Positions 50 through 19,889 of a stretch of 19,889 bases of DNA are shown piece after piece (the first letter of the stretch is position 1; each line of letters starts with the position of its first letter). The notes below the pieces were generated by a model. The model saw only the letters and a list, made by a program, of their open reading frames with translations, was not told where the DNA came from and ran no database searches. The DNA is from a virus. Both the position numbers and the translations under genes were made by a program. The stretch lies in UHGV virus genome UHGV-0130218; one strand, given 5' to 3'.

Positions 50-349
50 CTACTTCGAAGAAAGGGCAAGTTTGCGCACAGTCGTCAGGAAATTGAATGG
101 GGTTGAATCCCACAACTCAGGTGAAAAATCAAATCCATACCGGCTTTTGAACTCCTCATCCAGCCTGTCTCCGTAAAGCACAAGGAAAGAATCGACCTCT
201 TCGGCTAACTCTTTTAACATCCAGTCGGGAGCTGTTTTTTTATAGAGTTCAACAGTGCCTTCAATAGTATCCTCTCCCTCATTTATGAGGTCATGATCCT
301 GATTGAAATAACCCTGAATCAGCTGATCAAGATGATAGAAACTTTGCAT
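50..349 (-). CDS. Putative immunity protein of the adjacent toxin-like ORF
   Basis: 99-aa ORF that starts 12 nt downstream of the toxin-like ORF on the same strand. Small, acidic (D/E-rich), no catalytic motif, as is typical of immunity partners of nuclease toxins. Family not assignable by eye. Confidence 0.45.
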   Translation of the reverse strand: MQSFYHLDQLIQGYFNQDHDLINEGEDTIEGTVELYKKTAPDWMLKELAEEVDSFLVLYGDRLDEEFKSRYGFDFSPELWDSTPFNFLTTVRKLALSSK

Positions 350-361
350 AATCCACCTGTC

Positions 362-1207
362 CTATGGGGTCGGGAATGCTGTAAGGATATAGTAAGGTTT
401 TCCGTTATACTCTTGCAATTCGATAACAATCCTCACTCCACGCATGCTGATGCGCTGTGTGCTGCCTCGCGTGAATCCATACCCAACCTCCTGACCGGCA
501 GAATAATTGATGGTAAGGCGTCCACCAATTTTACCACCTCCGAGTAACGATTTGATATTTGCCCGGTTAAGATAGACCGCCCTCGAAATAACATTTTCAG
601 CAACATTTAAGTCTTTAAACGTTGAAGACATAACAAGTCGCTTATTTTTCTCGAATCGGGCAAGTAACTCACTGTCAGTTTTTCCGACATGATTTGCGAG
701 TGTATGGCCGCCGGGTTTAAGACCCGTAACTGATTCATGCTGGATCAATTTGATGCGACCAGCTTTAATTGCAGCTACACGGACGGCACCAATAGCAGCT
801 GCAAATCCAAGCGGAACGGCTATATCAACTGTCATGCCGATATTGAGGGCGGTGTCTTCATCGGCACCAAGTTCTCTTGCCGCGCTTACAGCAATTTGCC
901 AGGTGGCTGAGCGCGTATCACGACCGGTTATTAGCTGTCTGGCTGCGCTTTGAACAGCGTCAAGACTATGTGCACCAACAACCACACATCCCGCTTTCGT
1001 TAGTCCTGTTGGTTCTGGCGCGATACATAGTGCCGTGGCACCGGCCATTTCTACCGCTCCGAGTAAAACGCCAAGTCCCCCCAACAGTCGGTTACTCAGC
1101 GTTTCCGCCTCTGTAATGCTTTTATCTGAAAGCACCGCCGCCAGCTGTACCGGTGACATAACAACGACCATTCCACCTTCTTCCATAACAGTATCCCATC
1201 CCTCCAT
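362..1207 (-). CDS. Putative polymorphic-toxin-like protein (Gly/Ala-rich pre-toxin segment ending in TG plus C-terminal nuclease-like domain)
   Basis: 281-aa ORF. N-terminal part has a Gly/Ala-rich hydrophobic segment (LLGGLGVLLGAVEMAGATALCIAPEPTGL...AARQLITG) resembling pre-toxin TG domains. C-terminal ~130 aa carries GGHTLANHVGK (His-x4-His-x2-Lys), reminiscent of EndoU/RNase-type toxin domains. No secretion or delivery domain is present, and the upstream frame closes 17 codons before the ATG. Confidence 0.5.
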   Translation of the reverse strand: MEGWDTVMEEGGMVVVMSPVQLAAVLSDKSITEAETLSNRLLGGLGVLLGAVEMAGATALCIAPEPTGLTKAGCVVVGAHSLDAVQSAARQLITGRDTRSATWQIAVSAARELGADEDTALNIGMTVDIAVPLGFAAAIGAVRVAAIKAGRIKLIQHESVTGLKPGGHTLANHVGKTDSELLARFEKNKRLVMSSTFKDLNVAENVISRAVYLNRANIKSLLGGGKIGGRLTINYSAGQEVGYGFTRGSTQRISMRGVRIVIELQEYNGKPYYILTAFPTP

Positions 1208-2845: not shown

Positions 2846-3769
2846 TTGGATATATTTTCATTTTATGAATCTTTCGATAAAAACTATATATTTAATAAAA
2901 TAGATGGATTGGAGCGGTTAGAGCTTAAAACAAAGCAGGTTCTAAAGGAATTTCTTTATTCATTCTATCTGAATGGTGGGCAAGGAATACCAAGAGGATT
3001 GTCAATCAGTGCATACTTGGCAGAGTTACTAATGTATGATTTCGATAATCAAGTGAAAGATAACCACTCTGTTTTTTATTATGCTAGGTATGTAGATGAT
3101 ATAGTTATTGTCACTAGTGGTTACGAAGATAGTGATGCTTTTATTGAGAATGTAAAATCAAACCTTCCAAATGGATTGCGTTTTAATGAAGGGAAGAAAT
3201 ATTATATTAGCGATTTAATTCCAAAATCTTCCAAAAAAACAAACCGTGCACCCTCCAAAAAATTGTTATCCTTTGAATATTTAGGGTACGATTTTAGCGT
3301 GGGAGATAAAATTGAAGAGTGCAATATAAGAGGATTCTATAGGGTAATTGAAATTGATCTTGCACATGCAAAGGCTAATAAAGTAAAAAGTAGAGTGATT
3401 TATTCGATTGTTGATTTTAATAAAACCAATGATTTTGAGTTGCTATGTGAAAGACTAAAATTCCTGTCCACAAACTTTAGTGTTTTAGATTCAGATAGAG
3501 TATTAAAACGGTTGTCGGGCATTCATTTTAATTATCCTCTTATTGATGCTAAATCTTCTAAGCGCCTTGCTGAACTTGATGTGTTTTTAAGAAAGGCTGT
3601 ATTATCATCTAGTGGTAAGGTTTTCTTTGATTTTCATGCGAACTTAAACCAATGCAAAAAATATCGATTACTTAAGATTAGTTTTGTTAGAGGCCATGAG
3701 AAACGTCATTTTTTTCATTATTCAGCTTCAAAAATGATGAAAATTCAAAGGTGTTGGAAATATGTCTAA
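2846..3769 (+). CDS. Reverse transcriptase, palm/thumb segment (the frame is open from 2729, so it is likely continuous with 2506-2754 after a +1 shift)
   Basis: RT motif A YRLDIFSFYESFDKNYIF, motif B QGIPRGLSISAYLAELLMYDFD, motif C YYARYVDDIVIV, motif D/E LRFNEGKKYYIS. No ATG or GTG precedes these motifs in this frame; the ORF track uses TTG at 2846. AT-rich. Confidence 0.8.
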   Translation: MDIFSFYESFDKNYIFNKIDGLERLELKTKQVLKEFLYSFYLNGGQGIPRGLSISAYLAELLMYDFDNQVKDNHSVFYYARYVDDIVIVTSGYEDSDAFIENVKSNLPNGLRFNEGKKYYISDLIPKSSKKTNRAPSKKLLSFEYLGYDFSVGDKIEECNIRGFYRVIEIDLAHAKANKVKSRVIYSIVDFNKTNDFELLCERLKFLSTNFSVLDSDRVLKRLSGIHFNYPLIDAKSSKRLAELDVFLRKAVLSSSGKVFFDFHANLNQCKKYRLLKISFVRGHEKRHFFHYSASKMMKIQRCWKYV

Positions 3770-5714
3770 AAAAAAGGAAGTAAGAGTTAATAAAAAAGAT
3801 TTTAATAGGGTTTTAGTTACTGAAACCATACCCTATGAAACGCCTATAATAGTGTCCAATGATGGTTTTTATAACAATGTAGTTAAATATACAACGGCCA
3901 ATGATACTGCTAAGGTATTGATTCAAAGAATAATTCTAGGGGAAAAGAAGAAAGGTAGGTATACGATTCCCTATGTTTTTAAAATTAATAAAAATGAGAC
4001 GGAGTTTCGACGTTTAGCCTTTCCACACCCCATATCTCAGATTGAAATGCGGGATTTTTATCTCCATTTTAATCAAATGATGATCAATTTTTGTTCCCGT
4101 AGTGATTTTTCTATTCGGCGACCGGTGAAGGTTGCAAGTACATATTATTATAAGAACTTATTGGAAGACAAGAATTTATATAAGAGAGGGCCTGTTGATA
4201 CCGACAAAAATGAACTATTAACTCGGCATGCTTCTTCATATTTTGGCTATCACGGATATGATCGCCTGTATAAGTTCTTTATGTCTAATGAGTTTATTGA
4301 CCTTGAGCGTAAATATAATACGCTATATACATTAGATGTTTCAAAATGTTTCGACAGTATCTATACTCATTCAATTTCTTGGGCTGCAAAAACCAAGACT
4401 TTCATTAAAGGGATGTTAGCTAATAAATCATTAAACTTTGGTGATGCTTTTGATAAATTAATGCAACGTTGCAACTTTAACGAAACCCATGGTGTAATTA
4501 TCGGTCCAGAAATTAGTCGAATATTCGCTGAGGTTATATTTCAAAAAATAGATTTAAATGTTCAGTTTAAATTAAATAATATCGAGCCATCGATACGTAA
4601 GGGTATCGATTATGATATTCGCCGTTATGTTGATGATGTTTTTATTTTTGCTAAAAATGAAACTAATGCCGAAATTATATATAAGATTTACACTGATAAA
4701 CTGAATGAATATAACATGCATATAAATTTGGGTAAAGTAACAAAAAACACTCGACCTTTTATCACAGCAAAAACGCAAATTATACATCACGTCAATCAAA
4801 GAATGAATTTATTTATTGAATCTTTTCTTGGTTATGATGATGAAATGAAATTAATCGCAAAGCCAATATATAACAATAGGAAGTTAGCTAACAAATTTAT
4901 AGATGAGGTGAAAATAATATGTGCTGAAAATAATGCGGGATATGGTGAGGTTGCTTCTTATATTGTGTCGGCGATTTTTGAAAGAATTAAAAGATTAACT
5001 TCTTCAGTTAATCAAGTCGAAGATAAAGATATATACAATGCAATGTATGTTTTGCTCCATATTTCATTGTTCTTTTTCAGAGTTGCTCCGTCTGTTAGTT
5101 CATCATATAAATTGGCTTCAATACTTATCGTGGCTCTCAGATATTTTAAGGCTAAAGTACCATCATACAGTGAGCTTATAGCATCATATGTTTATTTTGA
5201 AATTGAAGACTTTCTTAAATCTGCTAATACTAGCAAAGTAGCCATAGATAATCTAATTAGTCTTGAGGCATATAATATTATGTATGTTATAGGTGAGCTA
5301 GATCAAGAACGATATTTATCAAAACAGTTGATTGAGAACATTTTTAGTGAAGTTGATTCTTATTTTGATATAGTGTCCTGTCTATATATCGTAAAGGATA
5401 AGAAAGTTTATAATACACTTAAAAATAAAATTATTGATATTATTAACTCCAAGTTAATGTCAAGTGATAGTATTTTGGATTATAGTGAAAAGGCAATGCT
5501 CTTTTTGGATGTTATGTCTTGCCCTTATATTGATTTAAAATGGAAAAAAATATGGTTGAAATCAACTTTAAAAGAATTGCAAGAAGCTACTCCTAACAAT
5601 GAAAAAATAGATAGTTTTATCAGTTATTCTGTAGCGAATCCTTGGTTTGTGGACTGGAGTAATGTCGATCTTTTGAATTTCTTAGAAAAAAAACAATTGA
5701 AAAAAGCCTATTGA
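3762..5714 (+). CDS. Reverse transcriptase with long alpha-helical C-terminal extension (UG/Abi-type, defence-associated RT-like)
   Basis: 650 aa. Motif A YTLDVSKCFDSIYTHSI, motif B HGVIIGPEISRIFAEVIF, motif C RRYVDDVFIFAKN, followed by ~300 aa of predicted helical sequence. Its ATG overlaps the upstream RT stop by 8 nt, indicating translational coupling. AT-rich. Confidence 0.85.
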   Translation: MSKKKEVRVNKKDFNRVLVTETIPYETPIIVSNDGFYNNVVKYTTANDTAKVLIQRIILGEKKKGRYTIPYVFKINKNETEFRRLAFPHPISQIEMRDFYLHFNQMMINFCSRSDFSIRRPVKVASTYYYKNLLEDKNLYKRGPVDTDKNELLTRHASSYFGYHGYDRLYKFFMSNEFIDLERKYNTLYTLDVSKCFDSIYTHSISWAAKTKTFIKGMLANKSLNFGDAFDKLMQRCNFNETHGVIIGPEISRIFAEVIFQKIDLNVQFKLNNIEPSIRKGIDYDIRRYVDDVFIFAKNETNAEIIYKIYTDKLNEYNMHINLGKVTKNTRPFITAKTQIIHHVNQRMNLFIESFLGYDDEMKLIAKPIYNNRKLANKFIDEVKIICAENNAGYGEVASYIVSAIFERIKRLTSSVNQVEDKDIYNAMYVLLHISLFFFRVAPSVSSSYKLASILIVALRYFKAKVPSYSELIASYVYFEIEDFLKSANTSKVAIDNLISLEAYNIMYVIGELDQERYLSKQLIENIFSEVDSYFDIVSCLYIVKDKKVYNTLKNKIIDIINSKLMSSDSILDYSEKAMLFLDVMSCPYIDLKWKKIWLKSTLKELQEATPNNEKIDSFISYSVANPWFVDWSNVDLLNFLEKKQLKKAY

Positions 5715-5880
5715 ATTGCTAATTTGTTGTTGAAGCAACCAATATGCCCTACACGATTTTTCGATATACTAGGGCTGATTACGGTAGGTAAGTTGCATGT
5801 AACCTGGCCTACCTTATGACGCTCAAGAGCAGAAATGCACACACTAAGGGATGAGGTTGCTTCAACCCCTTTTATTTTCT
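5715..5880 (+). ncRNA. Candidate structured non-coding RNA downstream of the RT operon
   Basis: 5729-5740 GTTGAAGCAACC and 5855-5866 GGTTGCTTCAAC are perfect reverse complements (12 bp), enclosing ~115 nt with internal stems such as 5784-5789 GGTAGG / 5808-5813 CCTACC. A T-rich tail follows. No ORF. Confidence 0.35.
5848..5880 (+). terminator. Putative intrinsic terminator for the RT operon
   Basis: Stem GGTTG-CTT-CAACC at 5855-5867 followed by CCTTTTATTTTCT. The int stop codon (5862-5864 on the minus strand) lies in the loop. Confidence 0.4.
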
Positions 5881-7058
5881 ACAAAATTCCCCCACCACAG
5901 CATCAGCTCTACTCTTTGTTGCAAATAGACAGAGCGGTTGTATGCTCTTCGTACCTCATTCTTATCAGAATGAGCTAGTGCTGCTTCAATGACGTCTGGA
6001 TTAAATCCTTCTTCATTAAGCGTCGTGCTAGCTATCGAGCGTAAGCCATGAGCAACTAGCTTCCCATTCCAGCCAACTCTTTTTAGTGCAGCATTAGCCG
6101 TCTGGCTATTCATAGCTTTCTTAGGGTCATTTCTACTTGGAAAAACATGATCACGGTGCTTACTGATGGGTGCCATGATCTCAAGAATATAAAGCGCCTG
6201 AGGAGATAGAGGAATTAAATGTTCACGCTTCGCTTTCATCCTTTCGGCGGGGATTGTCCAGAGTTTTGAGTCGAGATCGATCTCTTCCCACCTGGTACCG
6301 GAGGCTTCAGAAGGGCGTACAAGGGTTAGGAGTTGCCACTCAATTAGACAGCGAGTAGGAACAGACAGATTTGACATAACCAAAGAACGCATCAGACTTG
6401 GTAATTCTTCTGGTCTAAGCGTAGGCATATTTTGCTTTTTAGGCCTCTCAAAAGCCATTCCAACTCCTGAGGTTGGGTTTGCGTCAATCAAGCCGGTATT
6501 TACCGCGTAAATCATAATCTCATTAATACGCTGTACCAGACGACGAACAGTCTCCAGAGCACCACGCGCTTTGATTGGCTCTAATGCTTCAACAATTGTT
6601 CTGGCCTTAATCTCCTGAACAGGTATCGTGCCTATTGCAGGGAAAACGTCCTTGTCTAAAGATCGCCAAATATCTTTTGCATAGTCTTCGGTGACGCTTT
6701 TGCTCTTCATTTTGAACCAGTTGGTGGCCACAGTTGAGAAAATGCTATCCAGCTCTATCTGACGCTTTTCTGATGCATGCTCTTGTTGCTGTTGTGGATC
6801 CATATCTAGCGCGAGCATGGTTAAGTGCTGGTCGCGTATCTGACGAGCTGCTGCGAGTGTAAAGGCAGGGTATGAGCCGAGACTCAAATTTGTGCGGCTG
6901 CTGCTTCCCGGTCGTTGATAACGGAAGCGCCAGAGTTTTTTGCCGGAGGTTTTTACGAGTAAGAACAGGCCATCACCATCATGCAGGGTGAAGTCTTTTT
7001 CGCGGGGTTTTGCTTTGAGGATTTCGTTGTTAGTGAGGGGGCGTGTAATGCGCGCCAT
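5862..7058 (-). CDS. int: P4-type tyrosine integrase
   Basis: 398 aa. N-terminus LTNNEILKAKPREKDFTLHDGDGLFLLVKTSGKKLWRFRYQRPG is typical of P4-family integrase arm-binding domains. The C-terminal catalytic region has HGLRS...LAHSDKNEVRRAYNRSVYL (R, H-x-x-R, Y). RBS aggga upstream. It is adjacent to a tmRNA 3' fragment, as with CP4-57 intA. Confidence 0.9.
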   Translation of the reverse strand: MARITRPLTNNEILKAKPREKDFTLHDGDGLFLLVKTSGKKLWRFRYQRPGSSSRTNLSLGSYPAFTLAAARQIRDQHLTMLALDMDPQQQQEHASEKRQIELDSIFSTVATNWFKMKSKSVTEDYAKDIWRSLDKDVFPAIGTIPVQEIKARTIVEALEPIKARGALETVRRLVQRINEIMIYAVNTGLIDANPTSGVGMAFERPKKQNMPTLRPEELPSLMRSLVMSNLSVPTRCLIEWQLLTLVRPSEASGTRWEEIDLDSKLWTIPAERMKAKREHLIPLSPQALYILEIMAPISKHRDHVFPSRNDPKKAMNSQTANAALKRVGWNGKLVAHGLRSIASTTLNEEGFNPDVIEAALAHSDKNEVRRAYNRSVYLQQRVELMLWWGNFVENKRG

Positions 7059-7311: not shown

Positions 7312-8172
7312 TCAAATAAATTTGTTTTTCCATGTCTCGTATCTTTTACGTATCCTTTGAAGTAGTAATGCCGTCCAGCTAAGGCCGTGAGAGAATGTTA
7401 GATTAAAAGTTGCTTCCACTGTATCTCCACGTATTGAGAATCTATTTATCCGATATTCAGTAGAAAAAAACTCTTTTTTTGTTGTTCCAGAGATTTCTTC
7501 ATATTCAATTAATAAAACAGGCCCATCTATTTGAGTTAACATATTTTCATGGAGGCTGATTTTATCCAAGAGGTAGTTAGATAATAGTGTCGGTATTAAT
7601 GTGGGGATGTGAAGATTTACCTCTTCTTTGTTAACGCTCCAAGGGAGAATATAAACAACATCAGAATATTGTTCTTCATGAGAATACCATTTGGATTGAC
7701 CAAAACCTAATAATGAAATGTAAGTGTGACCTTGTTTGTCTAATTGATAACAGTATTCATTAGCCATCATGGCTGCTTTGTAACCTTTGGTGTCAAAGGT
7801 ATGTTCATCGTCTAGTTTTTTTATTTTATTTAACAAAAAATGTTTTTCGTAATTGAATATCCATTGGTATTTGAATTTCAACGCTGGGCCTAGACCAACA
7901 TTTAATATTGGCAGGGTGGGATTGTTGTTTTTTGATATAGCATCAAAAACACCTTTGTTTACTATTTTTGTTTTATCAATTTTTATTTTTACATCTTTAG
8001 TGATTATCTGTACTTTGTTTGATAACTTTCTTTGGATAACAGTTTGCCTTATAGCTAAATAAGCAGCAATTGCTGATAAAGCACTTGCTGTCAAACCACC
8101 ATATCCGAGCCATGCGGGGTCTGCCATATCGAAGTATTCCTGCCTTATAACAAGGCAGGAATTATTTCTCAA
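7312..8172 (-). CDS. Hypothetical membrane-anchored protein; AT-rich moron between the lambdoid int and the att core
   Basis: 286-codon ORF with a TTG start; a more likely ATG start at 8127 gives MADPAWLGYGGLTASALSAIAAYLAI, a predicted N-terminal transmembrane helix. The ~240-aa soluble domain has no motif I recognise. Strongly AT-rich compared with the neighbouring int. Confidence 0.6.
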   Translation of the reverse strand: MRNNSCLVIRQEYFDMADPAWLGYGGLTASALSAIAAYLAIRQTVIQRKLSNKVQIITKDVKIKIDKTKIVNKGVFDAISKNNNPTLPILNVGLGPALKFKYQWIFNYEKHFLLNKIKKLDDEHTFDTKGYKAAMMANEYCYQLDKQGHTYISLLGFGQSKWYSHEEQYSDVVYILPWSVNKEEVNLHIPTLIPTLLSNYLLDKISLHENMLTQIDGPVLLIEYEEISGTTKKEFFSTEYRINRFSIRGDTVEATFNLTFSHGLSWTALLLQRIRKRYETWKNKFI

Positions 8173-9344
8173 TTCTTCACATTGTTCAAGGATGTGATCG
8201 ATGAGTTGTTATCATAATCTTTCAAATAGCGTCCGTAATGACGAAAGAGCATCTCAGGTCCTTTGTGGCCCATCTGCGCAGCCAGCCAAAATAAGTTTAC
8301 ACCGCAGCTTATCATACGTGTGGCGAATGTATGCCTTGTCTGATAAGGATTACGGTACCTGATACCGGCTTTCCGGAGCGTAGGAACCCAGGCTTTTTTC
8401 CTAATGGCGTCCGCGCTGGCCCATGGCTTGTTTGTCTTCGGATCTTCAAAGACACAACCATTCTTCATGAAGCTAAAGGGCTTTTGTTCGTTTAGAGCAA
8501 TCATCGCTTCCTCGGTTAACTCAACCTTGCGTGTTCCTGCCTTCGTTTTCGTACCTTTCGTCACGCCAGAGACGCTGGCGCTCTGTACATGAGCCGTCTT
8601 CTCAACGAAGTCAATGTCCCTCCAGCGTAGTGCGCAAAGTTCCGAACTGCGTAGACCTGTCTGAAGCGCAAATCTGAATAAGTTCTCCCATTGCTTATTA
8701 CCCGCTGATTTTAACAGCGCGCTTACCTCTGCTGGAGATAGTGGATCAACAATATAAGTACTTTCCTCGTCACTTTTTTTGCTTTGATATCGTGAAGCTG
8801 TTACCTGTGACACTGGATTAATTTGTAAAACACCATCAGTTACAGCTTCATCAAGTGAGGAACGAAGAAACGACAACTGGTTACGTATCGTCTTCAATGT
8901 TGTTTTCTGATTCTGAATCCATGTTTTTAATGCTGCTGGCGTTAACTCACTGGCCGGGAAAATGTGAAGTTCAGACAGTGCGCTACGGCATTTTTTATAC
9001 CCGCCAATGGTGGAGGGGGAAAGATTCCTCGTTTCGCAAATCTTCAGGTACTCATCAAGATACATTTTCACTGTTTTCCCGGTCGCAGCATTACCGAAAA
9101 TTTTTAACCTCACCGAACGAGGGAAATATTCAGCATAGATAAATGTTCCACGCTCGATTTTGTTGTGGATTTCGCCGAGCATACGCTCGGCATATTTAAG
9201 GTTTTTGTTGTTCACTTCTAGATTTGAAAGGGGTTCTCTGCATTTCACCCCCTTGTATGTGAACGTAATATTGATGGTTTCACCACTGCTGTGCTTCCTG
9301 ATGGTTACACCACGTGGGAGTTTAGGCGATTCTTTCGTGCCCAT
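8169..9344 (-). CDS. int: Phage tyrosine integrase (lambdoid type)
   Basis: 391 aa. C-terminal catalytic region RNPYQTRHTFATRMISCGVNLFWLAAQMGHKGPEMLFRHYGRYL (R...H-x-x-R...Y). Its start overlaps the xis-like ORF. Confidence 0.9.
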   Translation of the reverse strand: MGTKESPKLPRGVTIRKHSSGETINITFTYKGVKCREPLSNLEVNNKNLKYAERMLGEIHNKIERGTFIYAEYFPRSVRLKIFGNAATGKTVKMYLDEYLKICETRNLSPSTIGGYKKCRSALSELHIFPASELTPAALKTWIQNQKTTLKTIRNQLSFLRSSLDEAVTDGVLQINPVSQVTASRYQSKKSDEESTYIVDPLSPAEVSALLKSAGNKQWENLFRFALQTGLRSSELCALRWRDIDFVEKTAHVQSASVSGVTKGTKTKAGTRKVELTEEAMIALNEQKPFSFMKNGCVFEDPKTNKPWASADAIRKKAWVPTLRKAGIRYRNPYQTRHTFATRMISCGVNLFWLAAQMGHKGPEMLFRHYGRYLKDYDNNSSITSLNNVKN

Positions 9345-13371: not shown

Positions 13372-14031
13372 TTAAATATTCTGGGTTATCTGAACAACTT
13401 TACCGACAATCCGGCAATTTCCATCTATCGGTATAGGTTTGAAGGCAGGATTAAGCGGCATCAGATACGCGAAAGGGCTATCCCAGACGAGTTTTTTCAC
13501 TGTTGCTTCAGCAGAGCCATCAAGTATCGCCACGACTATTTTCCCGTAAAGGTCATCCAGTTGGCCATAGTGTGGTTCAACTATTACGATCGACCCTTCG
13601 GGTATGGATGGTAGACCATGTGGGTTAGTCATCGATTCCCCACGAACAACCAGGCCGAATACTTCATCAGAAACGTTTGCAGTGGTTTGCGTCCATGAAA
13701 TCACATCAGAAAGCCTTGAGCATGCGTAAGTATCAGTCCACGTCCCTGCCTGGACAGCAGAGATAATTGGAACTGCCTTAGGGGGCTTGAGAAAGGGGAT
13801 CACTTTGGTGTCATCCTGCGCTTCATCTCCTTTCCCGTAGAGAATCCATTCAGGCGTGGTTTGCAACGCCATCGCCAGCTGATGGAGGTTCTCACCATCA
13901 GGCTTCGTGTTACCGCTCTCCCATTTAGTAACGGACACGCGGCTAACACCTAGGCGTTTAGCTAGGGTCTGCTGCGTTATATCGAGCTGGACTCGACGGG
14001 ATCTTATTCGGTCTTTCATCTCTGTTTTCAT
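13372..14031 (-). CDS. cI: CI-type phage repressor (HTH plus S24 LexA-like peptidase domain)
   Basis: 219 aa. N-terminal HTH QQTLAKRLGVSRVSVTKWESG. C-terminal GESM (Ser nucleophile) and ATVKKL (Lys) motifs. Divergent from the cro-like gene. Confidence 0.85.
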   Translation of the reverse strand: MKTEMKDRIRSRRVQLDITQQTLAKRLGVSRVSVTKWESGNTKPDGENLHQLAMALQTTPEWILYGKGDEAQDDTKVIPFLKPPKAVPIISAVQAGTWTDTYACSRLSDVISWTQTTANVSDEVFGLVVRGESMTNPHGLPSIPEGSIVIVEPHYGQLDDLYGKIVVAILDGSAEATVKKLVWDSPFAYLMPLNPAFKPIPIDGNCRIVGKVVQITQNI

Positions 14032-14094: not shown

Positions 14095-14123
14095 TTTAAG
14101 GCGTGAGTTAACTAGGAGGAGCC

Positions 14124-14312
14124 ATGCGTAAATCACAAGTTATTGAGCACTTTGGCGGAGTATCAAAAACCGCCAGTGTTCTTGGGATCTCCCATCCGGC
14201 TGTTTGCCGATGGGGAGAGGTTATTCCTCAGAAGCAAGCGTTCGTTATCGAACGAATTACTGAAGGCAAGCTTAAGTACGACGCCAGCCTTTATCAGAAG
14301 CCTACAGATTAG
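14124..14312 (+). CDS. cro: Cro-type small HTH repressor
   Basis: 62 aa. VIEHFGGVSKTASVLGISHPAVCRWGEVIPQKQAFVIERITEGKLKY resembles P22-type Cro as I recall it. Divergent from cI, with a strong RBS. Confidence 0.8.
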   Translation: MRKSQVIEHFGGVSKTASVLGISHPAVCRWGEVIPQKQAFVIERITEGKLKYDASLYQKPTD

Positions 14313-14349
14313 GCATCTGGGAAGAAACCACAGATATAAGGGGTTAGCC

Positions 14350-14898
14350 GTGGGTATAGAACCTGAATGGAAAGTAGATAAGCAGCCAGCCTGGCTGGTG
14401 GCCGCAATCAAAAAAACGATAACCGAGCTTCCTGGCGGGTATTCCGAAGCAGCTGAGTGGTTGGGTGTGACCGAGAACGCGCTGTTTAACCGGCTGCGTA
14501 CCGATGGTGATCAGATCTTCCCGCTCGGTTGGGCGATGGTGCTTCAGCGTGCTGGTGGTTCAAACCACATAGCGAACGCTATTGCACGTCACTCGAACGG
14601 TGTGTTTGTGCCATTGGCTGATGTTGAAAAGATTGAGAACGGCGATATCAACCAGCGTCTCATGGAGTCAGTTGAGTGGATCGGCAGGCATTCGCAATAC
14701 GTTCGTAAAGCTACCGCTGACGGCGTTATTGATGCTCAGGAACGCGCCCAGATCGAAGAGAACAGCTATCAGGTGATGGCTAAGTGGCAGGAACATTTGA
14801 CGCTGCTTTTCCGTGTGTTTTGCGCGCCGGAAAAGAGTGACGCCCGCGAGTGTGCAGCTCCGGGCGTCGTGGCAGACAAATCTTGTATGGAGAAGTAA
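14350..14898 (+). CDS. CII-like / YdaT-like regulatory protein (start probably GTG at 14350, not the longer 14143 frame)
   Basis: The long ORF-track frame from 14143 would overlap cro. GTG at 14350 is preceded by aagggg 8 nt upstream. Position after cro and size (~183 aa) fit CII-like regulators of lambdoid prophages. Family call is tentative. Confidence 0.5.
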   Translation: MGIEPEWKVDKQPAWLVAAIKKTITELPGGYSEAAEWLGVTENALFNRLRTDGDQIFPLGWAMVLQRAGGSNHIANAIARHSNGVFVPLADVEKIENGDINQRLMESVEWIGRHSQYVRKATADGVIDAQERAQIEENSYQVMAKWQEHLTLLFRVFCAPEKSDARECAAPGVVADKSCMEK

Positions 14899-15070
14899 TC
14901 CGCATGACCAGTTTAACGGCTTTTAACCGTTTACCGCAACTCAGGATGATCCCGGTACCGGGCGCTCCGTTGTTTCGGTATGAACGCAGAATAGCAAACC
15001 GCTGGGTGCCATGTAACCACAGTCGGGCGGTCGCAATTGTGGGGGTTTACTACAGGAAGGCGAAACGCTT

Positions 15071-15250
15071 ATGCGCGAAGTTAACCGAAGGTTCAAAGAC
15101 CACAGAGGGATCCCCGTTCGGGTTATCCGGTGGGAGCCAGAGACTCAACGAGTTATCTACCTGCGGGATGGTTATAACCACGAATGTTTCAGCCCGCTCG
15201 AACAATTTAAGCGCAAGTTTACAGAGTTAAAGGACGACCATGAGCACTAA
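15071..15250 (+). CDS. Small conserved phage protein (59 aa), below the ORF-track size cutoff
   Basis: ATG at 15071 with GAAGG upstream. Encodes MREVNRRFKDHRGIPVRVIRWEPETQRVIYLRDGYNHECFSPLEQFKRKFTELKDDHEH, a balanced protein-like composition. It overlaps the next gene start and lies fully inside the low-complexity 14850-15230 frame. Confidence 0.4.
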   Translation: MREVNRRFKDHRGIPVRVIRWEPETQRVIYLRDGYNHECFSPLEQFKRKFTELKDDHEH

Positions 15251-16103
15251 ATTAACGGGTTACGTTTGGGACGCTTGTGCCGCTTCTGGCATGAAGCTGT
15301 CCAGCGTTGCCATCATGGCGCGTCTGGCAGACTTCAGCAGTGATGAAGGGGTTAGCTGGCCTTCCATCGCTACCATTGCGCGCCAGATTGGTGCCGGTGA
15401 GAGCACGGTTCGCACAGCCATATCTCAACTGGAAAAAGACGGGTGGTTAACCCGTCAGCAGCGCCGTAAAGGCAACCGCAATGCATCGAACGTTTACCAG
15501 CTTAATGTTGCGAAATTACAGGCTGCTGCCTTTTCTCACCTGTCAGATTCTGACGCATCAAAATCTGATGCCTCAAAAACCGACGCGTCAAAATCTGAGG
15601 CATCAAAAAACGATGAAAAAGGCGGTTTTCACCCGTCAGAATCTGGGGGGGATCCGTCAGTAAATACAACTACTGATCCATCAGATAAAAAACATTCTTG
15701 TCCGGTTGCTGCGCAACCCGACCCTGTGGTGGTTATCACCGATCAGGCGAAGCAGGTTTTATCACATCTGAACAAGACCACTGGTTCACGGTATCAGGTC
15801 TGCAAATCGTCCTTGGAAAACATCCGGGCTCGCCTGGCTGACGGGTTTACGCCCGATGAGCTGCTGTTGGTGGTGGATTACAGCGTCGAGAAGTGGGGCG
15901 AGGATCTGAAAATGGCCGAATACCTGCGCCCAACAACGTTGTTTTTGCCATCTAAATTCCCAGGTTACCTGCAATCCGCAAATAAGTGGAACGCAGCAGG
16001 ACGCCCAGAACGACAGTACTGGGGCTCAATTCGTAAGCATGATCCGATGAAATTTGGTGGGCCAGATAAAGCCATCCCAGCTGGCTTCAGGGGAGCGAAA
16101 TGA
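15240..16103 (+). CDS. Replication initiator (lambda O-like; N-terminal winged-HTH, C-terminal phage replication-protein domain) with internal repeats
   Basis: 287 aa. N-terminal HTH-like segment VSWPSIATIARQIGAGESTVRTAISQLEKDGWL. Central (S/T)DASK pentapeptide repeats encoded by 15-bp tandem repeats. Position after cro/cII as for lambda O. Confidence 0.65.
   Translation: MSTKLTGYVWDACAASGMKLSSVAIMARLADFSSDEGVSWPSIATIARQIGAGESTVRTAISQLEKDGWLTRQQRRKGNRNASNVYQLNVAKLQAAAFSHLSDSDASKSDASKTDASKSEASKNDEKGGFHPSESGGDPSVNTTTDPSDKKHSCPVAAQPDPVVVITDQAKQVLSHLNKTTGSRYQVCKSSLENIRARLADGFTPDELLLVVDYSVEKWGEDLKMAEYLRPTTLFLPSKFPGYLQSANKWNAAGRPERQYWGSIRKHDPMKFGGPDKAIPAGFRGAK
15549..15608 (+). repeat. Four tandem 15-bp repeats inside the O-like gene; candidate origin iterons
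   Basis: tctgacgcatcaaaa / tctgatgcctcaaaa / accgacgcgtcaaaa / tctgaggcatcaaaa, in frame (coding SDASK-like repeats). Analogous to the lambda ori iterons, which lie within O. Confidence 0.5.
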
Positions 16104-16999
16104 TGAGCATGAATGCTGATAACAAATATTGCCGCGCGCTGGCTGAACTTCGCTCAAAGCCAGCGCATGAATTGAAAGAGGTTGGCGATCAGTGGCGCAC
16201 TCCGGATTTGTTGTTTTGGGGCATCAATTCGATATTTGGGCCGATGGTTCTGGATCTGTTTGCAGACGATAGCAATGCTAAATGCCCTGCATGGTATACC
16301 GCCGAAGATAACGCGCTGACGCAGGATTGGTCAGTGCGTCTGGCAGAACTCGGTGGCGCCGCGTTTGCAAATCCGCCTTATAGCCGTTCTCAGTACCATG
16401 AAAAGCAGGCCATCACTGGCATGACCCACATCATGAATCACACAATGGCGATGCGTGATAAAGGTGGTCGTTACATATACCTCGTGAAGTCAGCCACAAG
16501 TGAAACATGGTGGCCGGAGGATGCCGATCACATCATGTTTATTCGTGGTCGTATTGGGTTCGATCTTCCTGTTTGGTTTGTTCCCGCTGACGAGAAGCAG
16601 CAACCCACCAGCGCATTTTTTGCCGGGGCAATCGCTGTCTTTGACAAAACCTGGCGTGGTGAAAGCTTCAGCTATATCAATCGCACCGAACTGGAAGAAA
16701 AAGGGCGAGCAGCATTGTCATTGGCTCAATTCGCCGCGGCAAAAATGGCCCTTCCGTCCGTGCCGGAAAAAGCAATGCCTACTGCCATTGCAACGCCTGA
16801 TGCAGAGTCGCGCATCTGGCCGCTGGAGGTTGGTCTGGTATTCAATCAGCTCGAGGGGGCGGATTCTCTGGAGGTGAACCAACAGAACAAGTTGAAGGCC
16901 AACATCAACCAACTCTGGCTGGAGCGTGTGCCTACCAGCGAAATAATTAGCGTGGCTGGTGGTCTGATTAGCAGCATGCAGGGGGCCGTCAATGCGTGA
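16100..16999 (+). CDS. Phage N6-adenine DNA methyltransferase (Dam-type)
   Basis: 299 aa. N-terminal WRTPDLLFWGINSIFGPMVLDLFADDSNAKCPAWYT and catalytic motif FANPPYS. Overlaps the upstream gene by 4 nt and the downstream gene by 8 nt. Confidence 0.7.
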   Translation: MMSMNADNKYCRALAELRSKPAHELKEVGDQWRTPDLLFWGINSIFGPMVLDLFADDSNAKCPAWYTAEDNALTQDWSVRLAELGGAAFANPPYSRSQYHEKQAITGMTHIMNHTMAMRDKGGRYIYLVKSATSETWWPEDADHIMFIRGRIGFDLPVWFVPADEKQQPTSAFFAGAIAVFDKTWRGESFSYINRTELEEKGRAALSLAQFAAAKMALPSVPEKAMPTAIATPDAESRIWPLEVGLVFNQLEGADSLEVNQQNKLKANINQLWLERVPTSEIISVAGGLISSMQGAVNA

Positions 17000-18929
17000 A
17001 ATCATCGTTGATAACTTTGCCGGTGGTGGCGGCGCGAGTACCGGCATTGAACTGGCCATCGGGCGTAGCGTGGATATCGCTATCAACCACGACGAAAACG
17101 CTATTGCGATGCATAAGACGAATCACCCTGACACGCTGCATTATTGCGAGTCGGTGTTTGACGTTGACCCAAGCGCAGCCACCAGCGGTAAACCTGTCGG
17201 TCTGGCCTGGTTTAGCCCTGACTGCCGCCACTTTTCCAAAGCTAAGGGCGCTAAGCCGGTTAAGAAAGAGATTCGCGGGCTGGCGTGGATTGTTCTGCGC
17301 TGGGCGCTGGCAGTACGTCCCCGCGTCATGATGCTGGAGAACGTCGAAGAATTTAAGACATGGGGCCCGCTGCTGGATGAAGAATTACGCCCGGATCCTG
17401 AGCGTGCTGGTGAAACATTCGAGGCATTTGTCGGCATGCTGTCGACTGGTATCGCGGCGAATCACCCAGCACTGGCTGAGGTTTGCGAATTTCTTGCCAT
17501 TGAGCCGCACGGCCAGCAGGCGCAACAGCTGATCGCTGGGCTTGGCTATGAGGTCGATTATCGTGAGCTGCGCGCTTGTGATTACGGCGCGCCGACGATC
17601 AGAAAGCGTTTCTTCATGGTCATGCGCTGTGACGGCCGCAAGATTCATTGGCCTGAAGCGACTCATGGGGATCCAAAATCACTGGAAGTACAAAGCGGCA
17701 AGCTGGCGCCATGGCGTACCGCGGCGGAGTGCATTGACTGGAATATCCCGGCCCGGTCCATCTTCGACCGCAAAAAGCCGCTGGCGGAAAATACGCTCAA
17801 ACGTATCGCGCGCGGCATCCAGCGCTTTGTTATCGAAAGCGCATCGCCTTTCATCGTGAAGTGTAACCACACCACGACGAAAGGAGGTTATGACTGTTTC
17901 CGCGGGCAATCGTTGTTAGAGCCATTGCAGACCATCACTAAAAAGCATGGCTACGCGCTGGCGGTACCGCATCTTACTAAATTCCGCACCGGGGCCACCG
18001 GGCAGCCAGTGACCGAGCCGGTACCAACTGTCACCGCTGGTACGTCGGCTCGCCCGGGCGGTAATGGGCATGCGCTTGGCGTAGTTGAGGCCGCGCTGAC
18101 ACCGTTCCTGGCGGGCAATGGCGGCAGTGAGTACCAGGCAAAGCCGCGCCCGCTGGATAAACCCGCTCATACAATCCTCAAGCAGTCCCGCGCGTGTGTG
18201 GTTGCTCCTGTCATCGCCCGCCAGTTTGGTGCCAGTGTTGGGCACAGGGCAGACGAGCCTAGCGCAACGATTACTGCTGGCGGTGGCGGTAAATCGCAGC
18301 TGGTAACCCCAACACTGATCCAGATGGGATACGGCGAACGCCCAGGGCAAGAACCGCGTGTTCTTCAACTGAATAACCCGCTCGGCACGGTCACTGCTGG
18401 TGGTAATAAGTTTGCGGCGGTGAGCGCGTTCCTGGCGAAGCACTATGGTGGGAATTACTCGGGGCCGGGTGTTGGTATGGATGAGCCTGCCCACTCAGTC
18501 ACTACCGTTGATCATCACGCGGTAGTTGCGTCGCACCTGGTGAAGCTGCGCGGAACCTGCCGCGACGGTCAGACCATGGATACACCTATGCCGACGATTA
18601 CCGCTGGTGGCCAGCACGTTGGCGAGGTCCGGACATTCCTCGAAACCTACTGCGGTGAAAGCGAGGATGAATGGCTGGTGACGATCGAAGGAGTTAAGTA
18701 CCAGATCATCGATATCGGAATGCGCATGCTGCAACCGCATGAGCTTTATAAGGCGCAGGGCTTCCCTGACGGCTACGTTATCGATCAGGACTATCGCGGC
18801 AATCGTTACGCCAAAGACAAGCAGGTAGCGCGCTGCGGTAACGCAGTACCGCCGCCGTTCGCTCGTGCGCTGGTAGAGGCAAATCTTCCTGAATTATGTG
18901 CAAATCAAAAGGCGGGTGCAGCCGCCTGA
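16992..18929 (+). CDS. C5-cytosine DNA methyltransferase with an expanded repeat-containing variable region
   Basis: 645 aa. Motif I FAGGGG, motif IV region FSPDCRHFS, motif VI MLENV, C-terminal ARCGNAVPPPFA. The central region holds about seven ~36-aa modules, each with a P-x-x-T-(I/V)-T core. Confidence 0.85.
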   Translation: MREIIVDNFAGGGGASTGIELAIGRSVDIAINHDENAIAMHKTNHPDTLHYCESVFDVDPSAATSGKPVGLAWFSPDCRHFSKAKGAKPVKKEIRGLAWIVLRWALAVRPRVMMLENVEEFKTWGPLLDEELRPDPERAGETFEAFVGMLSTGIAANHPALAEVCEFLAIEPHGQQAQQLIAGLGYEVDYRELRACDYGAPTIRKRFFMVMRCDGRKIHWPEATHGDPKSLEVQSGKLAPWRTAAECIDWNIPARSIFDRKKPLAENTLKRIARGIQRFVIESASPFIVKCNHTTTKGGYDCFRGQSLLEPLQTITKKHGYALAVPHLTKFRTGATGQPVTEPVPTVTAGTSARPGGNGHALGVVEAALTPFLAGNGGSEYQAKPRPLDKPAHTILKQSRACVVAPVIARQFGASVGHRADEPSATITAGGGGKSQLVTPTLIQMGYGERPGQEPRVLQLNNPLGTVTAGGNKFAAVSAFLAKHYGGNYSGPGVGMDEPAHSVTTVDHHAVVASHLVKLRGTCRDGQTMDTPMPTITAGGQHVGEVRTFLETYCGESEDEWLVTIEGVKYQIIDIGMRMLQPHELYKAQGFPDGYVIDQDYRGNRYAKDKQVARCGNAVPPPFARALVEANLPELCANQKAGAAA

Positions 18930-18943
18930 TATGGAGAAATAGC

Positions 18944-19636
18944 ATGAATCAGTTAACCGCAAAGGGTGTTGTGACAATGTCCAGCCGTGAAATTGCCAAG
19001 CTGGTGCAGAGCAAACATGGTGATGTGAAGCGCTCAGCTGAGCGCCTTGCTTCTGCTGGTATTTTAACCGCGCCGTTGGCGCACACCCCCTACACACACC
19101 CGCAAAATGGGCAAACCTACGAGGAGTATTGGTTCAACAAACGTGATTCTCTGGTGATCGTCGCCAGGTTGTCGCCAGAATTTACCGCCGCTGTTGTCGA
19201 TCGCTGGCAAGAGCTGGAGAACAGCCAGGCCGTAAGTGTCCCGCAAACATTGCCGGAGGCATTACGTCTCGCCGCGGATCTGGCCGAGCAGAAAGAACAA
19301 CTCAGCCAGCAGTTAGCCGCTGCCGCGCCGAAAGTTGAGTTTGTCGATCGGTATTGTACTGCTAAAGGCTCAATGTCTTTCCGCCAGGTGGCAAAGCTGT
19401 TGCAGGCCAAAGAGACCGATTTCCGCTTGTTCCTCATTGAGAGCGGCATTTTGTACCGGCTCAGTGGAGTGCTGACACCGCGGCACCAGCACATTGCTGC
19501 CGGGCGGTTTGAAGTGAAAACTGGCACTACGAGCGAAACAAACTACGCCTTTAGCCAGGCACGTTTTACACCCAAAGGCATCGAGTGGATCGGCGGCCTG
19601 TGGACGGCACACATCGCTAAGGGGCATGCCGCGTGA
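18944..19636 (+). CDS. Phage antirepressor-like protein (Rha/Ant N-terminal plus KilA-C-like C-terminal domain)
   Basis: ATG at 18944 preceded by ggaga; the upstream TTG extension would overlap the methyltransferase gene. N-terminal SSREIAKLVQSKHGDVKRSAERL resembles Rha/Ant. C-terminal VDRYCTAKGSMSFRQVAKLL...FRLFLIESGILYR resembles the KilA-C/ANT domain. Confidence 0.65.
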   Translation: MNQLTAKGVVTMSSREIAKLVQSKHGDVKRSAERLASAGILTAPLAHTPYTHPQNGQTYEEYWFNKRDSLVIVARLSPEFTAAVVDRWQELENSQAVSVPQTLPEALRLAADLAEQKEQLSQQLAAAAPKVEFVDRYCTAKGSMSFRQVAKLLQAKETDFRLFLIESGILYRLSGVLTPRHQHIAAGRFEVKTGTTSETNYAFSQARFTPKGIEWIGGLWTAHIAKGHAA

Positions 19637-19889
19637 GAGGACTGTTTACAGCCGAGACTGTTCCGCGCCTTGGGCTTGTGCTGTTAAAGCCGGGTAGCGA
19701 ACTGATGTCTTTGTTTCAACAGGGGCGTGTGCTGGTGGAGCCTCAGCCAAAAAGTATGGCTGGGCTTCCGTCGGGGCTCGTCCCTGATGCCAGGCAGCCG
19801 CTGGCAGAAGATAAGTCGCTCGAGGAATTCTTCACCGACGAGAGAGTAATCCGTGCAGCAGGCGGTTTGACCGCGTGGGAACCCTGGTT
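19633..19889 (+). CDS. Hypothetical protein, 5' partial ORF running off the window end
   Basis: Open frame from GTG at 19633 (overlapping the upstream stop as GTGA) to the end of the window without a stop. No recognisable domain. Confidence 0.3.
   Translation, partial: MRGLFTAETVPRLGLVLLKPGSELMSLFQQGRVLVEPQPKSMAGLPSGLVPDARQPLAEDKSLEEFFTDERVIRAAGGLTAWEPW

Follow-up and report, generated by a model that had tools for sequence, protein, structure and literature searches.

A probable replication origin with 15-bp half-site repeats inside the initiator gene of an O-only lambdoid prophage

Where replication starts in a lambdoid prophage that has an initiator gene and no gene for a helicase loader, and whether tandem repeats inside the initiator gene mark this place, are the questions raised by the replication module of the UHGV virus genome UHGV-0130218. 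The complete stretch of 19,889 nucleotides is referred to as the window. Its replication-initiator gene is located at 15240..16103 on the plus strand and consists of an open reading frame (ORF) of 287 aa with HTH_36 and Phg_2220_C as N- and C-terminal domains, respectively, and a linker between them that contains repeats. The original prediction had described four in-frame 15-bp repeats at 15549-15608 in this linker as the likely origin, and the comparison with related genes supports this assignment by nucleotide-level selection and dyad symmetry. Judged from the sequence comparisons, the region from about 15533 to 15701, within the linker-coding part of the prophage's own initiator gene, is likely to be the replication origin, and the 15-bp repeats are very probably the initiator-binding sites of this origin.

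Repeat array and codon usage in the initiator gene

The array was detected by Tandem Repeats Finder at 15549-15608 with a period of 15 bp, 4.0 copies, 77% matches and the consensus TCTGACGCATCAAAA, together with a second period of 30 bp at 15552-15613 (87% matches). The four tandem units (15549..15608), which are delimited by this search and by frozen synonymous sites, consist of inverted half-sites TCTGA-N4-TCAAA coding for (S/T)(D/E)ASK. They are in frame and give the peptide SDASK SDASK TDASK SEASK at residues 104-123 of the initiator. As the Pfam domains at residues 23-70 and 173-245 flank these residues, the repeats form an inter-domain linker, and the position of the four units is confirmed by repeat search, ORF and Pfam analysis alike. 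The wider span of 15534-15615 given in the original prediction is reasonable as well, since degenerate units are found at 15534-15548 (TCTCACCTGTCAGAT) and 15609..15623 (AACGATGAAAAAGGC); the latter is a fifth unit in register with the array that contains no match to the core motif TCARAWTCTGA. Between the N- and C-terminal domains at least three repeated sites are present, namely four full and the flanking units (residues 99-128).

The array is framed by two similar boxes. The proximal element, box A (15533..15552, TTCTCACCTGTCAGATTCTG), holds the sequence TCAGATTCTGA at 15543-15553, a perfect 11-bp palindrome that matches the motif exactly on both strands. In a repeat search, box A was found again at 15626-15645 with 85% identity. 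This distal dyad site, box A' (15626..15646, TTTTCACCCGTCAGAATCTGG), has its core TCAGAATCTGG at 15636-15646. The resulting half-site lattice reads TCTCA-CCTG-TCAGA-T-TCTGA-CGCA-TCAAA-A-TCTGA-TGCC-TCAAA and so forth, i.e., the conserved DNA is made up of alternately inverted 5-bp half-sites, TCTGA-N4-TCARA-W-TCTGA. The four direct 15-mers named in the original prediction are real, but the functional unit is better described by these alternating inverted half-sites and the larger block of about 15533-15701.

Allowing at most one mismatch, 10 strand-matches to the core TCARAWTCTGA were counted in the 19.9-kb window, compared to 1.85 expected, and none of 200 shuffles reached this number. Except for one site, all matches are located within 15543-15646. 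Dyad symmetry is given by TCAGATTCTGA in the window and by TCTGAACGTTCAGA in relatives; the internal units of the window are imperfect (TCAAA). The unit spacing of 15 bp corresponds to about 1.4 helical turns, and successive sites lie on roughly opposite helix faces. The dimer site may be either TCTGA-N4-TCARA, with half-site centres 9 bp apart, or TCARA-W-TCTGA, with centres 6 bp apart, and the candidate sites at these two spacings are TCTGACGCGTCAGA and TCAGATTCTGA. A centre spacing of 9 bp is typical for helix-turn-helix dimers, and the TCTGA-N4-TCARA pairing forms a perfect palindrome in some relatives.

Related genes were collected by megablast, by tblastn and by a scan in which each species was represented by one genome. 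With megablast, nucleotides 1-504 of the gene were found at 94-97% identity in the Escherichia phages LLS, Eeyore and Flotzy as well as in E. coli prophages, and at 78% in the prophage of Nissle 1917. The tblastn search and the scan together added SfII, SfIV, phiNP, YeP2, phiP27, EKP1 and 80 loci from about 30 Enterobacterales genera, with an N-domain identity of 61-100%. In 511 kb of fetched loci, 430 of the 448 plus-strand motif matches lie at +270..+480 of the initiator gene. Adjacent matches are spaced by 15 bp in 263 pairs, by 48 bp in 44 and by 30 bp in 21; the 48-bp spacing is the distance from the last array unit to box A', which recurs in 44 loci. As the original prediction had anticipated, the repeat number varies among related prophages, with 2-9 motif copies across 94 loci. 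The near-identical E. coli prophages ECONIH5 and ECONIH4 have four and six units, respectively, and differ by a 30-bp insertion or deletion, and a pair of SfII-like loci (L007 and L008) also shows four and six units. For the annotation of Enterobacterales prophages, the motif TCARAWTCTGA at 15-bp spacing could be used to mark this origin type.

Tandem repeats of this kind might simply encode a slippage-prone, low-complexity protein linker, with no separate role for the DNA. In favour of this view, the hydrophilic repeat keeps the reading frame, differs in copy number and is located between two folded domains. Constraint on the DNA was separated from constraint on the protein by a codon test, in which units were selected within the linker by the peptide pattern S[KNED]x[DE] alone and their codons tabulated across 94 relatives. 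The first Ser of the unit is encoded by TCA in 389 of 404 cases (16% background in the same genes) and the third-position Ser by TCT in 234 of 261 (90%; background 9%). Without exception, Lys is encoded by AAA (277/277; background 62%), Asp by GAT (51/51; 55%), Glu by GAA (43/43; 57%) and Asn by AAT (33/33; 40%). The third base of the last codon, i.e., the 12th nucleotide, is free, with 237 GAC and 101 GAT codons, so that the frozen stretch is exactly TCA-RAW-TCT-GA, the 11-nt dyad. The control was a set of 56 N-domain codons for amino acids conserved in 85% or more of these same sequences; here the commonest codon accounts for a fraction of 0.53 on average and in no case for 0.9. The result persists in a reduced set of 35 representatives that share less than 80% of their nucleotides and, on average, 40% of the third positions in the N-domain: TCA was found in 139 of 145 cases, A or T as third base of the middle codon in 145 of 145, and TCT in 82 of 97.

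The peptide itself is less stable than the DNA. It drifts between SDASK, SDPSK and SERSD with unchanged half-sites, and in the SERSD and SEHSD sub-families the DNA is still TCTGAACGTTCAGA, a perfect 14-bp palindrome despite the changed peptide. The residue 'x' of the unit is A, P or T; the codons for these three share C as second base, and the matrix shows 70% C there. The frozen codons are not explained by an overlapping gene, since no alternative frame is consistently open: in some loci, stops in the remaining five frames are separated by as few as 1-24 codons. Codon tests and N-domain control together show that the sites are conserved as DNA beyond the needs of the protein, and from this comparison the amino-acid sequence of the linker is dictated by the embedded DNA sites and not the reverse. 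A mere protein linker is extremely unlikely in view of synonymous sites that are frozen over the 11-nt dyad but randomised in the neighbourhood and in the N-domain, and of half-sites that stay when the peptide changes. The region is a good example of a DNA element that determines the amino-acid sequence of the protein linker in which it is embedded.

Selection on a single-stranded structure, either an mRNA hairpin for translation or stability of the initiator transcript or a single-stranded DNA or cruciform priming signal, could also be the cause of the frozen synonymous sites. The stretch 15530-15700 folds at -53.2 kcal/mol, whereas shuffled sequences give -31.6 +/- 3.6 (z = -6.0), and it contains long imperfect inverted repeats, with box A pairing with box A' and unit 2 being the exact reverse complement of unit 4. 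Any array made of palindromic units would fold strongly, however, and copy numbers of 2-9 alter any global fold. The complementarity of units 2 and 4 is absent in the Nissle prophage, and a 5-bp stem with a 1-nt loop cannot form. Furthermore, 61% of the units carry A instead of G at motif position 4, which results in an A-C mismatch in either dyad reading; since this is the commonest unit, pairing is not what is selected. A structural signal is thus very unlikely to account for the conservation, and the strong fold is probably a by-product of the palindromic units, although the origin may extrude a cruciform.

Second conserved block, AT-rich patch and putative origin function

Downstream of box A', a conserved block is located at 15650..15686 (GGATCCGTCAGTAAAT...CTGATCCATCAGAT). 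It contains GATC twice (15651-15654 and 15675-15678) as well as another dyad, CTGA-TCCA-TCAG (15673-15684). For 89 loci, which were aligned by anchoring on the SGGDP peptide, the nucleotide consensus is GTTTTcACCCgtCAGAATCTGGnGGgGATCCGTCAGTAAAtTCAAaacaaGATCCATcAG. The codons of box A' are frozen in this alignment (F=TTT in 85 of 89 loci, E=GAA in 81 and S=TCT in 87 of 89), and so are those of the block (D=GAT 89/89, V=GTA 88/89, P=CCG 82/89). In the middle of the block, the third position of a Gly codon is fully randomised (GGC 38, GGG 34, GGA 9, GGT 8), so that saturation and constraint adjoin. The two GATC sites are kept in 89/89 and 79/89 relatives by means of a frozen GAT-CC(G/A) Asp-Pro codon pair, and GATC occurs on average 2.7 times per linker versus 0.48 times per N-domain. 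A Dam-like ORF was found in at least 46 of 93 flanks, which were short and searched with a single query sequence, and the GATC sites are present regardless of it. A link by methylation or SeqA between the GATC pair and the phage Dam methylase, which is encoded directly after the initiator, is possible from this arrangement.

The adjoining AT-rich region that the original prediction proposed to look for is present at 15657..15701 and is a candidate unwinding element. Its G + C content has a minimum of 0.275 over 40 bp, and it holds the only 40-bp windows with a value of 0.275 or less in the early-right operon (14100-19800). An AT-rich tract next to the sites is thus found as in lambda, though weaker and further away from the array. 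As a side observation, three distant HTH_36 initiators with unrelated iterons have 2-3 copies of (A)GAACCAGTCAC(T) after their iterons (L098 1808-1848, L099 1768-1795, L101 1779-1807). This element recalls the pair of GATCCRTCAG sequences downstream of the array in the family of the window and may be a second shared origin element.

The codon evidence shows that a DNA site is conserved, but not what the site does. The array could instead be a cis-acting protein-binding region unrelated to the origin, such as an operator by which the initiator or a YmfL/CII-like or DUF4222-like regulator encoded nearby would regulate transcription across the early-right operon, or a site for a host factor or for Dam/SeqA. 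Such a role would fit the complete or almost complete conservation of both GATC sites and the phage Dam gene directly downstream, and the 15-bp packing is unlike that of characterised lambdoid iterons. This explanation is nevertheless unlikely. The position is the same as that of the lambda, P22 and L origins, the AT-rich patch adjoins, and the array is co-inherited with the DNA-binding domain of the initiator across swaps of the C-domain. In addition, the cI-cro intergenic region and the rest of the window lack the motif, apart from the one outlying site, and in the complete genome of the related phage LLS no further replication element is annotated.

Several points weigh against the assignment of the region as an origin bound by the initiator. 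The identity of the binding protein follows from its co-inheritance with the array alone, and initiator binding and origin function are inferred from comparison for every member of the family. No helicase loader is encoded for the steps after binding. The codon counts come from sequences related by descent and are not independent events. Most internal units are imperfect dyads (TCAAA vs. TCAGA), and the 15-bp period differs from the 20-24 bp of lambda and of distant HTH_36 relatives. Finally, the AT-rich patch is modest, as 8% of the 40-bp windows in the whole window are as AT-rich, and begins about 50 bp past the last tandem unit.

For the origin, the following course of events can be proposed. 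Dimers of the N-domain would bind the dyad sites cooperatively and form a nucleoprotein complex like the lambda 'O-some', which would strain and open the adjoining AT-rich patch. The DnaD-like C-terminal domain (Phg_2220_C) would then recruit the helicase-loading machinery of the host, a step proposed in view of the missing genes for a P-like loader or a helicase. As in lambda, transcription of the initiator gene from pR may assist. The copy number would change by slippage in steps of 15 or 30 bp, and the protein would tolerate these changes because the linker sequence is dictated by the DNA sites. A more detailed version, in which the self-sufficient, loader-less initiator polymerises on alternating helix faces, opens the AT-rich patch and recruits host DnaB via its C-domain, with firing gated by methylation or SeqA at the GATC pair and coupled to the phage Dam, is rather unlikely to hold in full.

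If this version is true, the region would be the missing origin of the O-only lambdoid phages. The origin module probably marks the replication start of a phage class with uncharacterised replication. Phage LLS, whose module is 97% identical, grows on E. coli K-12, and a concrete fragment for experiments is defined by the half-site lattice, boxes A and A', the GATC pair and the AT-rich patch.

Initiator protein, modularity and gene neighbourhood

In the initiator protein, Pfam identified an HTH_36 winged-helix domain at residues 23-70 (E=2.7e-9) and Phg_2220_C at residues 173-245 (E=2.9e-22); DnaD_N at residues 21-89 scores below the Pfam cut-off. Among the PHROG families, the protein matches phrog_11896 'primosomal protein' (1.6e-79) and phrog_391 'replication initiation O-like' (4e-49), and a 'DnaD-like helicase loader' family covers residues 103-285 (6.9e-8). 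No match to Pfam PF04492 (Phage_rep_O) was found at E<=0.01, whereas lambda O itself scores 5.7e-36, and the BLASTP comparison with lambda O is not significant (E=0.26). The term 'O-like' used in the original prediction therefore describes role and position and not family membership. It holds loosely, as the N-domain of the window belongs to HTH_36 but sibling genes do carry a lambda-O C-domain. A P-binding C-terminal domain of the lambda-O type with a P gene downstream was not found for the initiator of the window. The search against solved structures gave weak winged-helix matches only (MarR, GntR, PaaX; E>=0.019).

The gene is part of an operon of the lambdoid early-right type, whose first members are a CI-like repressor gene (13372-14031, minus strand) and a CII/YmfL-like gene. 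Directly before the initiator gene, a small ORF (14850-15230) belongs to a PHROG family of unknown function; relatives have a DUF4222 gene at this position. The HTH_36 initiator is thus placed after cro and cII in the early-right operon, as are the HTH_36 / PHROG O-like phage initiators. Downstream follow a Dam methylase gene (16100-16999), a C5 methylase gene (16992-18929) and an antirepressor gene. The C5 methylase ORF (645 aa) overlaps the end of the Dam gene and contains a cytosine methyltransferase domain in its N-terminal part only, with the best stretch at residues 6-122; the remainder has no Pfam assignment. Among the genes downstream of the initiator up to the end of the window at 19889, no helicase, loader or primase gene is present in the replication module, which is consequently of the 'O-only' lambdoid class with an initiator and no helicase loader.

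The comparison of the relatives revealed a modular gene. N-domain, repeats and linker are inherited together and the C-domain is exchanged at a sharp junction near 15743. At 15743 (query nucleotide 504) the megablast homology to the closest phages and prophages ends and the C-terminal domain begins, and one of the loci (L018) matches the window only up to this position. It is therefore taken as a recombination junction, past which the C-domain of these relatives is unrelated. The window as such is 97.6% identical to a contig of Enterobacter wuhouensis. The module of N-domain and repeats is joined to Phg_2220_C in the window, in LLS and in phiNP, and the initiator gene of the window is followed by a Dam methylase gene. 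In SfII (L010 2501-3442), the same N-domain and repeats are combined with a true lambda-O C-domain (BLASTP 7e-26 versus lambda O), and sibling genes of this type are followed by a PerC-like gene; neither the SfII type nor the type of the window has a P gene. Other C-domains are present in phiP27, where DnaC and DnaB genes follow, and in EKP1, where the gene for a toprim protein follows. From this distribution, origin specificity (N-domain and origin) is separable from partner specificity (C-domain), which is the classical lambdoid arrangement.

At the corresponding place in the gene, distant HTH_36 initiators (34-44% identity in the N-domain) have dyad repeats that are different and specific to each of them. 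These initiators include Stx phage 24B with three copies of GGGGCAGGAGCTGCC, Klebsiella RothD with four copies of TGCCATCnnATGGCA and Vibrio D290 with three copies of GTGACAnnnTGTCAC, and own dyad repeats were also found in Salmonella SI5, Pectobacterium ZF40 and Vibrio 236O40-1 and p42. Where a tandem spacing is defined, it is mostly 21-25 bp. Plasmids were also considered as evidence for autonomous replication but were uninformative: the 26 records with the N-domain are prophage-bearing megaplasmids, 15-kb e14-like circles or phage-sized circles.

Further features were noted in the remaining part of the window. A pair of type 3 defence-associated reverse transcriptases is encoded at 2846-5714 (also ORF 2506-2754; PADLOC: Drt3a 7e-108, Drt3b 1.7e-223) and adjoins a tyrosine integrase gene at 5862-7058 (minus strand) with an Arm-DNA-bind_3 domain. 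The match of the Drt3a ORF to its profile does not begin before position 114, so that either the start is located further upstream or the gene is frameshifted or truncated. A second tyrosine integrase gene lies about 1 kb away (8169-9344, minus strand), which suggests a tandem integration of the defence island and the prophage. An ORF of 281 aa at 362-1207 (minus strand) ends in a CdiA-CT RNase A toxin domain (Pfam 3.7e-33), and the small ORF at 50-349 (minus strand) just downstream of it could be its immunity gene. ARAGORN detected neither tRNA nor tmRNA genes in the window; for the relative LLS, the annotation places an attP within a tmRNA pseudogene.

Comparison with known replication systems

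The best-studied counterpart is the lambda origin, which consists of four iterons and an AT-rich tract inside O, with variants of six iterons in Stx phages (PMC7466680). Lambda was analysed as a control: its annotated iterons are located at +349..+433 of gene O with spacings of 20, 24 and 23 bp, and the G + C minimum of 0.25 follows directly after them. In lambda as in the window, dyad-symmetric sites lie in the linker of the own initiator gene. They begin around +300 to +350 nt, the part of the gene richest in A + T comes after them, and the iteron number differs between relatives in both. The systems differ in the N-domain (Phage_rep_O in lambda, HTH_36 in the window) and in the P gene, which follows O in lambda and is missing behind the initiator of the window. 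They further differ in spacing (20-24 bp or about two helical turns versus 15 bp or about 1.4 turns) and in the sites, with arms of about 6-7 bp around an A-rich centre in lambda and 5-bp half-sites in the window. In the window, unlike in lambda, the array is separated from the AT-rich patch by a G + C-rich spacer and a second dyad box. Just to the right of the AT-rich tract of lambda (L102, 862-877), the sequence CGTCAGAGAATTCTGG resembles CGTCAGAATCTGG of box A' (15634-15646), and the protein alignment of SfII with lambda O runs through the linker that holds box A'. This resemblance could reflect shared ancestry of an origin element, or chance.

According to published inference, which agrees with the pattern in the distant HTH_36 initiators, those of lambda, P22 and L each bind different iterons within their own coding regions (PMC8022706; PMC7466680), and in phage L these are six imprecise copies of an 11-bp sequence (PMC8022706). 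Gene 18 of P22 and gene 18 of L thus resemble the gene of the window as distantly related initiators with own intragenic iterons, but differ in repeat sequence and initiator family, and a DnaB-type helicase gene (gene 12) adjoins the initiator there and not in the window.

Tandem sites, a winged-helix initiator and an AT-rich unwinding element are also shared with iteron plasmids of the RepA, pi and TrfA type. Plasmid iterons are spaced by about two helical turns, are bound by monomers and lie outside the rep gene. They are direct repeats of about 17-22 bp, in contrast to the dyads 15 bp apart in the window, where the sites are inside the initiator gene.

The closest known system is phage LLS. 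Its gene 44 has the same four units and is 97% identical over N-domain, repeats and linker; the C-terminal domain differs in sequence beyond nucleotide 504. The gene order is that of the window, with repressor, cro, cII-like gene, small ORF, O-like gene, methylase and antirepressor, and in the complete LLS genome no helicase, loader or primase and no other replication element are annotated. The replication module of LLS was described as a single gene, an O homologue, with no helicase or loader (PMC12315714). According to Zheng et al. (2025; PMC12315714), 34 of 314 Enterobacteriales lambdoid phages (about one in nine) have an O homologue only, none of these O-only phages has been studied experimentally and their replication is not understood; iterons and a mapped origin are absent from the text of that study. 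In the accessible literature on iterons in SfV- and SfII-type phages, on Phg_2220_C and on the motif, no account of this origin was found, although an older one is possible. Taken together, an origin located in its initiator gene is a known arrangement from lambda, P22 and L that is not described for these loader-less phages, and the distinctive feature within this known kind is the 15-bp half-site lattice.

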